Part shown: positions 16,253 to 55,472 of the stretch, in pieces
Position numbering within the stretch: the first letter of the stretch is position 1
Layout: each line of letters starts with the position of its first letter
NCBI RefSeq assembly: GCF_002854065.1
Contig: NZ_CP024147.1
DNA from: Escherichia coli
Lineage (GTDB): Bacteria > Pseudomonadota > Gammaproteobacteria > Enterobacterales > Enterobacteriaceae
Strand: one strand, 5' to 3'
Length of the DNA: 64,000 nt
The notes under the pieces: model-generated
The model's input: only the letters and a program-made list of their open reading frames with translations
Databases searched by the model: none
What the model was told of the DNA's origin: nothing
Program-made: the position numbers and the translations under genes

Positions 16253-16427
16253 TCATTATCTCTGGTAACTGGAGATAATTTTTAGCATAAGGGCATAACT
16301 GCTAATGTGATCGTAATCACAGTGTGATATTCGCATTATCAAATAGTTTTAAAAAGCAGAAGCGTGATTACTCTCACACAACACCTCTGCTTTCCATGTT
16401 ATTTCTTATTGCAATTACTAGAGACCT

Positions 16428-40317: not shown

Positions 40318-40686
40318 AATAAAAAAAGGGAGCACTGTATTCACAGTGCTCCCGGTTCGTTTCGCAGCATTCCAGCTACATTTGTTGCTCCCTGCTCATC
40401 CTTGACAACTTTTCCTCTGGCCTTGCGGCCAATCGTTCATCCTGAACTATTGCTTCCTGCTCACACCACCCCGATGTGATACTTCATCCTGAAGTGTCCC
40501 TGGCCTTCCTGACCCACCGAATCATCCTGACCGGTTCTCATTCTCCATCCTGGAGGTGTCCTTTAACGCGTCCTGCGTCATCCTCTTCGCTTCATCCAGA
40601 AGCCTTTCCCTGAAACACCATCCTGGTGTGTCCTTCAGAAGTGTCATCATCCTGATGTTCACTTCGTTGTCTGACTCCCTGTCGAC
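40318..40686 (-). ncRNA. csrB: CsrB small RNA (CsrA-sequestering), about 369 nt
   Basis: Minus strand starts GUCGACAGGGAGUCAGACAACG..., carries well over a dozen CAGGA(U/A)G-type GGA motifs (seen as CATCCTG on plus strand), ends in hairpin plus U-run at 40321-40358. Confidence 0.92.
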
Positions 40687-42469: not shown

Positions 42470-43834
42470 TTGATTACACATATTAGCCCGCTTGGCTCCA
42501 TGGATATGTTGTCGCAGCTGGAAGTGGATATGCTTAAACGCACCGCCAGCAGCGACCTCTATCAATTGTTTCGCAACTGTTCACTTGCCGTACTGAACTC
42601 CGGTAGTTTGACCGATAACAGCAAAGAATTGCTGTCTCGTTTTGAAAATTTCGATATTAACGTCCTGCGCCGTGAACGCGGCGTAAAGCTGGAACTGATT
42701 AATCCCCCGGAAGAGGCTTTTGTCGATGGGCGAATTATTCGCGCTTTGCAGGCCAACTTGTTCGCGGTTCTGCGAGACATTCTCTTCGTTTACGGGCAAA
42801 TCCATAACACCGTTCGTTTTCCCAACCTGAATCTCGACAACTCCGTCCACATCACTAACCTGGTCTTTTCCATCTTGCGTAACGCTCGCGCGCTGCATGT
42901 GGGTGAAGCGCCAAATATGGTGGTCTGCTGGGGCGGTCACTCAATTAACGAAAATGAGTATTTGTATGCCCGTCGCGTCGGAAACCAGCTGGGCCTGCGT
43001 GAGCTGAATATCTGCACCGGCTGTGGTCCGGGAGCGATGGAAGCGCCGATGAAAGGTGCTGCGGTCGGACACGCGCAGCAGCGTTACAAAGACAGTCGTT
43101 TTATTGGTATGACAGAGCCGTCGATTATCGCCGCTGAACCGCCTAACCCGCTGGTCAACGAATTGATCATCATGCCAGATATCGAAAAACGTCTGGAAGC
43201 GTTTGTCCGTATCGCTCACGGTATCATTATCTTCCCTGGCGGTGTGGGTACGGCAGAAGAGTTGCTGTATTTGCTGGGAATTTTAATGAACCCGGCCAAC
43301 AAAGATCAGGTTTTACCATTGATCCTCACCGGCCCGAAAGAGAGCGCCGACTACTTCCGCGTACTGGACGAGTTTGTCGTGCATACGCTGGGTGAAAACG
43401 CGCGCCGCCATTACCGCATCATCATTGATGACGCCGCTGAAGTCGCTCGTCAGATGAAAAAATCGATGCCGCTGGTGAAAGAAAATCGCCGCGACACTGG
43501 TGACGCTTACAGCTTTAACTGGTCAATGCGCATTGCACCAGATTTGCAAATGCCGTTTGAGCCGTCTCACGAGAATATGGCTAATCTGAAGCTTTACCCG
43601 GATCAACCTGTTGAAGTGCTGGCTGCCGACCTGCGCCGTGCGTTCTCCGGTATTGTGGCGGGTAACGTAAAAGAAGTCGGTATTCGCGCCATTGAAGAGT
43701 TTGGTCCTTACAAAATCAACGGCGATAAAGAGATTATGCGTCGTATGGACGACCTGCTACAGGGTTTTGTTGCCCAGCATCGTATGAAGTTGCCAGGCTC
43801 AGCCTACATCCCTTGCTACGAAATCTGCACGTAA
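42470..43834 (+). CDS. ppnN: Nucleotide 5'-monophosphate nucleosidase PpnN (YgdH), 454 aa
   Basis: ORF translation; LOG-family core. Confidence 0.9.
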
Positions 43835-43844
43835 TCTCCCCTCC

Positions 43845-43879
43845 CCCGGTGACGTTTGTTGCCGGGTTTTCTCGTTTTT
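43845..43879 (+). terminator. Intrinsic terminator after ppnN
   Basis: CCCGGTGACGTTTGTTGCCGGG hairpin followed by TTTTCTCGTTTTT. Confidence 0.55.
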
Positions 43880-44390
43880 GGTCACTTACTCATCAACTCA
43901 TTTCATTTGTTATATGAATGTTTCTTACCACCCTCACGCGACAAATATCATCACAGTTAATATGTCATACAATTTATATTGCAACGCAAACGTTTCCCTA
44001 TTTTCATAAACCGTATTTTATCGCTATGAAAAAGAAATTATCGCCATGATTAACTAAAAGTATTGATTTTTTCAGTTCAACCTACATATATTGCGCGCCC
44101 CGGAAGAAGTCAGATGTCGTTTAATGGGCAAATATTGCCCTTAAATTCTATTTTACTTTTGATTTACAGAGTAAAGCGTTGGGATAATCTATCTTCCAAG
44201 TAGATTATTGTATTTGGGATCAAGATCACTGATAGATACATAACTTGTGTGTATCTTTCCGCCCTCAAATTATTACGGCGGTAAATGATTAAGCCATCGC
44301 CGATAGACAGATTTCATTTTTACGGTCAGGCACCTTCCCGGGCTGAACTGGCTAAAAGCTGAATTATTTGCATTCCTCCAGGAGAAATAG

Positions 44391-45680
44391 ATGGAAACGA
44401 CTCAAACCAGCACGATTGCGTCGAAAGACTCTCGTAGTGCCTGGCGCAAGACAGACACCATGTGGATGCTGGGCCTTTACGGCACGGCAATCGGCGCGGG
44501 CGTGCTGTTCCTGCCAATCAACGCCGGTGTTGGCGGTATGATCCCGCTGATCATCATGGCTATCCTTGCGTTCCCGATGACGTTTTTTGCTCACCGCGGC
44601 CTGACTCGCTTCGTACTGTCTGGTAAAAACCCGGGCGAAGACATCACCGAGGTTGTAGAAGAACACTTTGGTATTGGCGCAGGTAAACTGATTACCCTGC
44701 TCTACTTCTTCGCTATCTACCCGATCCTGCTGGTTTATAGCGTGGCAATCACCAATACAGTTGAAAGCTTCATGTCTCACCAGCTGGGTATGACACCACC
44801 GCCGCGTGCGATTCTGTCGCTGATCCTGATCGTGGGTATGATGACCATCGTTCGCTTTGGTGAACAGATGATCGTTAAAGCGATGAGTATTCTGGTATTC
44901 CCGTTTGTTGGCGTACTGATGCTGCTGGCTCTGTACCTGATCCCGCAGTGGAACGGCGCAGCACTGGAAACGCTGTCTCTGGACACTGCATCTGCAACCG
45001 GAAACGGTCTGTGGATGACCCTGTGGCTGGCAATTCCGGTAATGGTGTTCTCGTTCAACCACTCTCCGATTATCTCTTCTTTCGCCGTTGCGAAGCGTGA
45101 AGAGTACGGCGATATGGCAGAACAGAAATGCTCGAAGATCCTGGCATTCGCACACATCATGATGGTGCTGACCGTAATGTTCTTCGTCTTCAGCTGTGTA
45201 CTGAGCCTGACTCCGGCAGACCTGGCTGCGGCTAAAGAGCAGAACATCTCGATTCTGTCTTACCTGGCTAACCACTTTAACGCACCGGTTATCGCGTGGA
45301 TGGCTCCGATTATCGCGATTATCGCTATCACCAAATCCTTCCTCGGCCACTACCTGGGCGCACGTGAAGGCTTCAACGGTATGGTGATTAAATCTCTGCG
45401 TGGTAAAGGTAAGTCTATCGAAATCAACAAGCTGAACCGTATCACTGCGCTGTTCATGCTGGTAACGACCTGGATTGTTGCCACCCTGAACCCGAGCATC
45501 CTGGGTATGATTGAAACCCTGGGCGGCCCAATCATCGCGATGATCCTGTTCCTGATGCCGATGTACGCAATTCAGAAAGTACCGGCAATGCGTAAGTACA
45601 GCGGTCACATCAGCAACGTATTCGTTGTCGTGATGGGTCTGATTGCAATCTCCGCAATCTTCTACTCTCTGTTCAGCTAA
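44391..45680 (+). CDS. sdaC: Serine:H+ symporter SdaC, 429 aa
   Basis: ORF translation; HAAAP-family multi-TM. Confidence 0.95.
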
Positions 45681-55049: not shown

Positions 55050-55472
55050 ATGCTGAAAACAATTTCGCCGTTAATTTCTCCCGAACTATTGAAAGTGCTG
55101 GCAGAGATGGGACATGGAGATGAAATTATTTTTTCCGATGCTCACTTTCCCGCCCATTCGATGGGACCGCAGGTAATCCGCGCTGATGGCCTGTTGGTGA
55201 GCGACTTGCTCCAGGCGATTATCCCGTTATTTGAACTGGACAGTTATGCACCACCGCTGGTGATGATGGCGGCGGTAGAAGGTGACACTCTCGATCCTGA
55301 AGTAGAACGACGTTACCGTAATGCGCTTTCACTACAAGCCCCGTGTCCTGACATCATCCGCATCAATCGTTTTGCGTTTTATGAACGGGCGCAAAAAGCC
55401 TTTGCGATCGTTATCACAGGCGAACGAGCGAAGTACGGGAATATTCTTTTAAAAAAAGGGGTAACACCGTAA
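55050..55472 (+). CDS. fucU: L-fucose mutarotase FucU, 140 aa
   Basis: ORF translation; RbsD/FucU family. Confidence 0.93.

Follow-up and report, generated by a model that had tools for sequence, protein, structure and literature searches.

The ppnN-sdaC spacer of Escherichia coli as a probable control region of sdaCB, with a CRP-dependent promoter and an mRNA leader under ArcZ control

The spacer between ppnN and sdaC in Escherichia coli is very probably the transcriptional and post-transcriptional control region of sdaCB, the genes for an L-serine/H+ symporter and L-serine deaminase II, with a CRP promoter starting transcription at about position 44265 of the window, the stretch of 64,000 nucleotides analyzed here. 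Read from 5' to 3', the proposed arrangement would begin with the ppnN terminator, continue with a variable stretch holding two YieP sites, and reach a PurR operator, where a conserved module of about 400 bp with almost no indels would begin on its upstream side. Next would come a weak sigma-70-like promoter in a distal position, then about 160 bp of regulatory DNA with Lrp and other conserved islands, and finally a CRP-dependent promoter of class II, with CRP at -42.5, the -10 element TATCTT and a start near 44265. The transcript would carry a leader of 126 nt, in which ArcZ, an sRNA that depends on Hfq, would block the Shine-Dalgarno sequence.

Between the end of the ppnN stop codon, at 43834, and the sdaC ATG, at 44391, lie 556 bp of intergenic DNA (43835-44390), close to the gap of about 550 bp given in an earlier note on this DNA. 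The description of the region as AT-rich also holds, with a G+C content of 37.8% against 50.9% over the window, and of 32-43% in sub-blocks of the spacer. In the MG1655 annotation ppnN (b2795) and sdaC-sdaB flank the spacer with no feature between them. Window coordinates equal U00096.3 coordinates minus 2,883,838, and relative to K-12 MG1655 the spacer differs by four SNPs and no indels. Of 5426 complete E. coli genomes searched with it, 5425 contain the spacer, at 95-100% identity and with a median of one location each. The multiple copies per genome that characterize REP, BIME, ERIC or MITE elements were thus not seen in these 5425 genomes, and a repeat or mobile-element origin is ruled out for this single-copy sequence. 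For comparison across the family, one scan of representative genomes yielded 80 Enterobacteriaceae loci with an SdaC identity of 87-100%; ppnN lies upstream of sdaC in 76 of them, and the spacer measures 436-648 bp.

At the upstream end a pattern scan detected an intrinsic-terminator-like hairpin of ppnN, CCCGGTGACGTTTGTTGCCGGG followed by TTTTCTCGTT (43845-43875, plus strand), whose hairpin part (43845-43866) precedes a T-run and begins 11 nt past the stop codon. The stretch described in the earlier note opened at 43880, 45 bp beyond the ppnN stop and just 3' of this hairpin. Further upstream, at a distance of about 3 kb, the small RNA gene csrB occupies 40318-40686 on the minus strand (coordinates from the MG1655 annotation).

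The location of the main promoter is best approached from a mapped start in a relative. In S. Typhimurium SL1344, dRNA-seq identified one primary sdaC start with a 123-nt UTR and the sequence TGAGATCGGGATCACTGATAGATTCATCACTTAAATGTATCTTTCCGCCCG from -50 to +1. This 51-mer aligns gap-free to 44215-44265 of the window, 42 of its 51 positions being identical; transcription in E. coli probably starts at the same place, about 44264/44265. This start would close a near-invariant block, TGTATCTTTCCGCC (44250-44265, plus strand), that also holds the -10 element (TATCTT at 44252-57) and a GC-rich discriminator, and that recurs with 0-2 mismatches in 69 of 77 sequences.

Upstream of this core lies a CRP site (44212-44233, unstranded) with the core TGGGATCAAGATCACT at 44215-44230 and its centre at 44222.5, which is -42.5 relative to 44265, the start transferred from Salmonella. 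The core departs from TGTGA-N6-TCACA at two positions, and the flanking ATC/GAT bases fit the extended consensus. Matches at this mismatch level are found 26 times in the window where 26 are expected by chance, and the weight of the site comes from ChIP-seq, conservation and geometry, not from the consensus match. CRP ChIP-seq in ETEC H10407 shows an sdaC peak with two proposed sites, AGTGATCTTGATCTCA and AGTTATGTATCTATCA, whose reverse complements correspond to window positions 44215-30, with one SNP, and 44230-45; the sequence TGAGATCAAGATCACT under this peak is the CRP site of the window. At 44217, in the left half-site, the window carries a G/A SNP relative to K-12 (TGGGA vs TGAGA), both versions being non-consensus there. 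In most species of the set of 76, the CRP-like match with the best score, TGnGATC-NN-GATCACT, lies exactly 35 nt upstream of the -10 block, and 76 of 77 sequences contain the GATCACT half paired with that block. The class II geometry of the site is kept by nearly all of the 76 Enterobacteriaceae. The literature adds that sdaC is induced by added cAMP and describes the gene as Crp-regulated. Taken together, a class II CRP-dependent promoter starting near 44265 is most likely the main cAMP-dependent promoter of sdaC.

This promoter resembles class II CRP-dependent sigma-70 promoters of the galP1 and melAB type in that CRP lies over the -35 position, next to a recognizable -10 and without a good -35, and in that in vivo CRP occupancy (ETEC ChIP-seq) and cAMP-responsive expression are both reported in the literature. 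It differs in the details: the CRP site departs from consensus at the same two positions (TGnGA ... TCACT) in all genera, and its centre lies at -42.5, given a start mapped in Salmonella, rather than at the textbook -41.5. Also unlike these types, sdaC has another 230 bp of upstream DNA, conserved and constant in length, that carry PurR, Lrp and YieP inputs. Elsewhere in the window, a perfect CRP consensus, TGTGATCGTAATCACA (16306-16321), matches the ygcW/yqcE entry of the ETEC CRP ChIP-seq table, and a one-mismatch site, TGCGATCGTTATCACA (55403-55418), matches its fucU/fucR entry.

The earlier note had drawn attention to two palindromes, both of which are present as quoted. Palindrome 1, GGGCAAATATTGCCC at 44126-44140, has a 6-bp stem and a 3-nt loop (GGGCAA-ATA-TTGCCC). 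Palindrome 2 is made of GATAGATACA (44231-44240) and TGTGTATCT (44248-44256), with the perfect arms AGATACA and TGTATCT separated by 9 nt. Further perfect inverted repeats of 6-8 bp occur at 44001-44032, 44152-44175 and 44184-44208. Counting nested stems of at least 6 bp gives 10 in the spacer versus 3.4 +/- 2.5 in 500 dinucleotide shuffles (P ~0.02), and a single 7-bp stem is seen in about half of the shuffles. The spacer is mildly enriched in small palindromes, and neither of the two quoted ones individually exceeds chance.

Their conservation is equally informative. Among 76 distinct sequences palindrome 1 is fully complementary in two, which are from Escherichia, and most other genera carry TAGCCTTCGCGCC at its position. 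Over 44122-44146 most non-Escherichia genera share the pattern AATG-n-TAGCCTTCGCGCC-n-TAAAT, the GC-rich core being replaced by GGCAAATATTGCCC in Escherichia. Palindrome 2 (44231-44256, unstranded) has its left arm in the -35/spacer region, overlapping the CRP-like sequence TGATAGATACATAACT, and its right arm in the -10 element; the left arm varies (ACATTCA, AGATTCA and others) around an invariant right arm (TATCTT), and full 7/7 complementarity is found in 4 of 76 distinct sequences. Since this repeat stops short of the mapped start, the main transcript does not contain it as an RNA hairpin. From these comparisons palindrome 1 appears to be a lineage-specific replacement and palindrome 2 a by-product of the -10 element next to a variable spacer. 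The two quoted palindromes are not conserved elements and not the functional units of the region.

One could read these palindromes as operators for dimeric factors, for instance as the target of a repressor that binds AGATACA-N9-TGTATCT over the proximal -35/-10 region. A repressor would be well placed there, small palindromes show the mild enrichment described above, and the left arm overlaps what the ETEC ChIP-seq table proposes as the second CRP-like sequence. That second sequence, TGATAGATACATAACT (44230-45), is however weak, with three of five matches per half and a centre near -27, which is not an activating position. An operator is also hard to reconcile with a left arm free to vary beside a right arm that is fixed as the -10, and neither palindrome has a known factor; we judge this explanation very unlikely. 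A sigma-54 promoter at TGGGCAAATATTGCC was rejected on separate grounds: the GG-GC spacing is 10 nt in E. coli where 11 is needed, and the second G is not kept in other genera (TGC, TGA, TGG).

The class II promoter at 44265 has a competitor further upstream. A consensus scan recovers a distal sigma-70-like promoter consisting of TTGATT, an 18-nt spacer and TATATT (44063-44092, plus strand; -10 at 44087-92), which matches the sigma-70 consensus at 9 of 12 positions and has a predicted start near 44099. If sdaC were mainly transcribed from there, its leader would be about 290 nt long and the palindromes at 44126-40, 44184-44208 and 44234-56 would fold as regulatory RNA hairpins. The only primary start that has been mapped, in Salmonella, is 165 bp downstream. 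The distal -35 is poorly conserved in other genera, and the promoter is better formed in Escherichia than elsewhere. A folded 312-nt leader from the putative distal start is somewhat more stable than shuffles (z = -1.72), a weak excess that 6 of 100 shuffles equal. Set against this, RNAalifold found 0 pairs in 44099-44264 and in 43980-44100, no covariation was found for 44099-44264 across 76 sequences, and the palindromes invoked are perfect in Escherichia alone (palindrome 1) or in 4 of 76 sequences (palindrome 2). A 2024 follow-up study (PMC10882989) treats the distal -10 as 'the sdaC promoter' and says that none is experimentally verified; the RegulonDB start cited for it traces back to a computational prediction (Huerta & Collado-Vides 2003).

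A genetic point for the distal promoter comes from experimental evolution of a cya strain, in which insertions were recovered at 2,927,924 (+A) and 2,927,928 (+ATT) (PMC8546631 supplement). These promoter-up suppressors correspond to window positions 44086 (+A) and 44090 (+ATT) and fall exactly within the distal TATATT. With the CRP-dependent promoter placed about 165 bp downstream, they are better read as a gain of distal promoter function: the insertions would create or strengthen a CRP-independent distal promoter rather than alter the native CRP-dependent one. The YieP and PurR sites do lie at more usual distances from the distal start at 44099 than from the proximal one. On balance we consider it unlikely that the distal promoter is the main source of sdaC transcripts, and retain the CRP-dependent promoter near 44265 in this role.

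The same stretch contains a small reading frame that could be taken for a leader peptide coupling sdaC expression to translation in an attenuation-like manner. In E. coli an ATG at 44114, preceded by a purine-rich stretch, opens a frame of 29 codons that runs to a stop at 44203. Almost every other genus has stops within this frame, and one E. coli strain has a stop at codon 3; the frame also precedes the mapped start, and a pattern scan detected no terminator after it. The lack of conservation effectively refutes a leader peptide or uORF at 44114-44203, and its likelihood is close to nil.

Proteins are known to bind in the upstream half of the spacer. In an IPOD-HR study two YieP sites were described, and scrambling both lowered reporter expression to the same extent as deleting yieP (PMC8282354). 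From the sequences in the Methods of that paper, site 1, ATTTGTTATATGAAT, is located at 43905-43919 and site 2, ATATGTCATACAATT, at 43960-43974 (both unstranded), the latter at an IPOD-HR/ChIP-exo occupancy peak. They lie 290-360 bp upstream of 44265, and the position of site 1 is not kept outside Escherichia. A further A/G SNP relative to K-12, at 43978, lies immediately 3' of site 2. The same study reports that sdaC expression is high in glucose-rich medium, where cAMP-CRP is low, and that it depends on YieP (PMC8282354). This suggests that a second, CRP-independent promoter contributes to expression, and the distal promoter may explain the YieP-dependent part in such medium.

The PurR operator, ACGCAAACGTTTCCCT (43984-43999, unstranded), matches the 16-bp consensus ACGCAAACGTTTTCNT at 15 of 16 positions, with the central CG and a perfect ACGCAAAC half-site, where 0.23 matches with up to two mismatches are expected per window. 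It is not a new site, since Table 1 of the PurR ChIP-chip study by Cho et al. already lists the identical motif, written on the other strand as AGGGAAACGTTTGCGT, for sdaC-sdaB (Cho et al. 2011, PMC3159470). The bound region reported there is 2,925,514-2,926,070 (U00096.2), and occupancy rises from a log2 value of 0.83 without adenine to 2.08 with adenine (PMC3159470). In its match, its half-site and its adenine-enhanced occupancy the site resembles the operators of the purine regulon, a 16-bp palindrome of the LacI/GalR family. Classical operators of this kind either lie over the promoter or form a roadblock downstream of it, whereas that of sdaC is far upstream of both starts, about 273 bp from the proximal and about 107 bp from the predicted distal one.

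The operator is also 10 bp from a YieP site under the rich-medium occupancy peak, and the bait of the YieP pulldown, window positions 43952-44137, includes it as well (PMC8282354). The lysate in that experiment was exposed first to a purR-promoter bait (PMC8282354), a step that may have stripped PurR from it ahead of the sdaC bait.

Comparison among the 76 Enterobacteriaceae shows how these sites relate to the promoter. The best-conserved part of the spacer is 44198-44290, and gap-free stacking of the sequences on the GATCACT anchor aligns conserved columns back to the PurR box. From the PurR core AAnCGnTT to the CRP anchor the distance is 232.5-234.5 bp in 57 of 76 species and exactly 233.5 in 45, despite the poor conservation of the intervening sequence. 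The flanking intervals are less constant: 272-503 bp separate the ppnN stop from the CRP anchor, and 145-172 bp the anchor from the ATG. As the PurR-CRP spacing is fixed while its flanks vary, the conserved module starts at the PurR operator. The YieP sites fall in the variable part of the spacer, outside this module. In the literature searched we found no description of this near-indel-free spacing of about 233 bp.

Within the module, conserved islands stand out: TTTTTACAG at 44066-75, TAACAG at 44164-69 and AAGTGGATTATTGCA at 44198-44212. The last belongs to a conserved block, AAGT(A/G)GATTATTG(T/C)ATT (44198-44214, unstranded; -67 to -51), directly 5' of the CRP site. With three mismatches this block is the sole match to the Lrp consensus in the spacer, and we tentatively assign it to Lrp. 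Lrp ChIP enrichment has been reported for sdaC, and the YieP paper refers to an Lrp site in EcoCyc that lies some 200 bp downstream of the YieP peak (PMC8282354). Two copies of TTTTTA(A)CAG (44066-44075 and 44161-44170) occur in most genera about 94 bp apart, or roughly nine helical turns; the second roughly coincides with the Lrp site mentioned from EcoCyc. Motif scans for CRP and Lrp, proposed in the earlier note as a check, had an uneven outcome: the former yielded the ChIP-backed CRP site with its two mismatches, and Lrp consensus matches over the window stayed at chance level (82 versus 80.6 expected).

The fixed spacing, together with the lack of RNA structure, points to a protein-DNA architecture upstream of the promoter, and the islands between the two promoters would accordingly be protein-binding DNA rather than structured RNA. 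Multi-site Lrp promoters of the ilvIH, serA and gltBDF type offer a parallel: sdaC shares with them a long, AT-rich, fixed-length upstream region with partly conserved islands as well as Lrp ChIP enrichment, its individual Lrp sites being at chance level by consensus scan. The several regulator sites suspected in the earlier note can thus be named as inputs from YieP, PurR, CRP, Lrp and, at the mRNA level, ArcZ, most of them already published.

Downstream of the start, the sdaC 5' UTR would extend over about 126 nt (44265-44390, plus strand), again with the start transferred from Salmonella dRNA-seq. The suggestion of a long 5' UTR survives to this extent: a leader of about 126 nt is indicated, not one of 300-500 nt, and most of the 556 bp is upstream promoter DNA, given the Salmonella-mapped start at about 44265. 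The combination of a start close to the ATG with a lack of conserved elements, which the earlier note had named as speaking against its view, is not what was found. As for RNA structure, an Rfam 15 covariance-model scan of 43000-45000 at E up to 10 gave no match within 43835-44390, the folding of a 146-nt UTR showed no excess stability over shuffles (z = +0.29), and RNAalifold returned no consensus structure for the complete UTR. Within the 5' UTR the sequence ATTATTACGG at 44269-44278 is repeated directly, as ATTTTTACGG, 47 nt further on (44316-44325). A related AT-rich motif, TTAC(C/G)G, is found again in other genera, and conservation is high for GAATTTCATATTAC at about +44 to +58.

Close to the 5' end, evidence for a local hairpin is mixed. 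In E. coli the possible stem CGGCGGU / AUCGCCG encloses a 13-nt loop (44276-44302, plus strand), and at +10 to +40 nearly every species has a possible stem of 4-9 bp around a conserved A-rich loop (approximately GAAAAUUAUAAAAAAA). The stems differ between genera (CGGCGGU/AUCGCCG, UUACGG/CCGUAA, AUUGCGGU/GCCGCAAU, GCGUUGG/CCAGCGC and UAGUGAUGG/CCGUCACUG), and examples in other loci are found at positions 2388-2413 of L012 and 2384-2415 of L074. When 3' halves are exchanged between species the stems become shorter, and none of 2000 permutations reaches the observed value. A covariance model built from 16 sequences was used to realign 60 loci; on this alignment 75.5% of cells are paired, compared with 26-49% when partners are slid, and double changes occur in seven of nine pairs. 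The mean folding z of -1.3 also favours the stem. Against it, RNAalifold applied to the model-fitted alignment found no pairs, different clades pair in different registers, stems in Salmonella are weak, and the E. coli copy did not match the covariance model. We put this marginal, register-shifting hairpin with its A-rich loop (+10 to +40) forward as possible and do not count it among the findings. No description of it in the sdaC mRNA was found in the literature searched. Such a stem-loop could serve as an Hfq distal-face landing site supporting ArcZ control, or as an mRNA stability element.

The 3' end of the leader is better defined. The Shine-Dalgarno sequence (AGGAG, 44380-84) is embedded in the ArcZ pairing site CCAGGAGAAAU (44378-44388, plus strand; -13 to -3), and ArcZ represses sdaC via a published pairing at -13 to -2. 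The MG1655 ArcZ seed UUUCCCUGG pairs with CCAGGAGAAA at 44378-88, and TTCCTCCAGGAGA is near-invariant across genera; the duplex energy is indistinguishable from that of shuffles (118 of 500). This corresponds to Hfq-dependent sRNA repression at the ribosome-binding site as in ArcZ-STM3216, where the seed likewise covers the Shine-Dalgarno sequence, and there is no difference from the published case.

The region itself is already known, and with each major input (CRP, Lrp, PurR, YieP and ArcZ) published there is little in it that is new as a discovery. What may be useful is that the mapped start, CRP ChIP-seq and conservation over 76 species together put the CRP promoter about 165 bp downstream of the -10 considered in the 2024 study. 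Beyond this, the constant PurR-CRP spacing suggests a phased, Lrp-type wrapping that would join purine, leucine/serine and cAMP signals at one promoter. The joint reading, in which such a phased nucleoprotein assembly is combined with the 5'-proximal stem-loop as a functional element, is tentative and in our estimate has clearly less than an even chance of being right.
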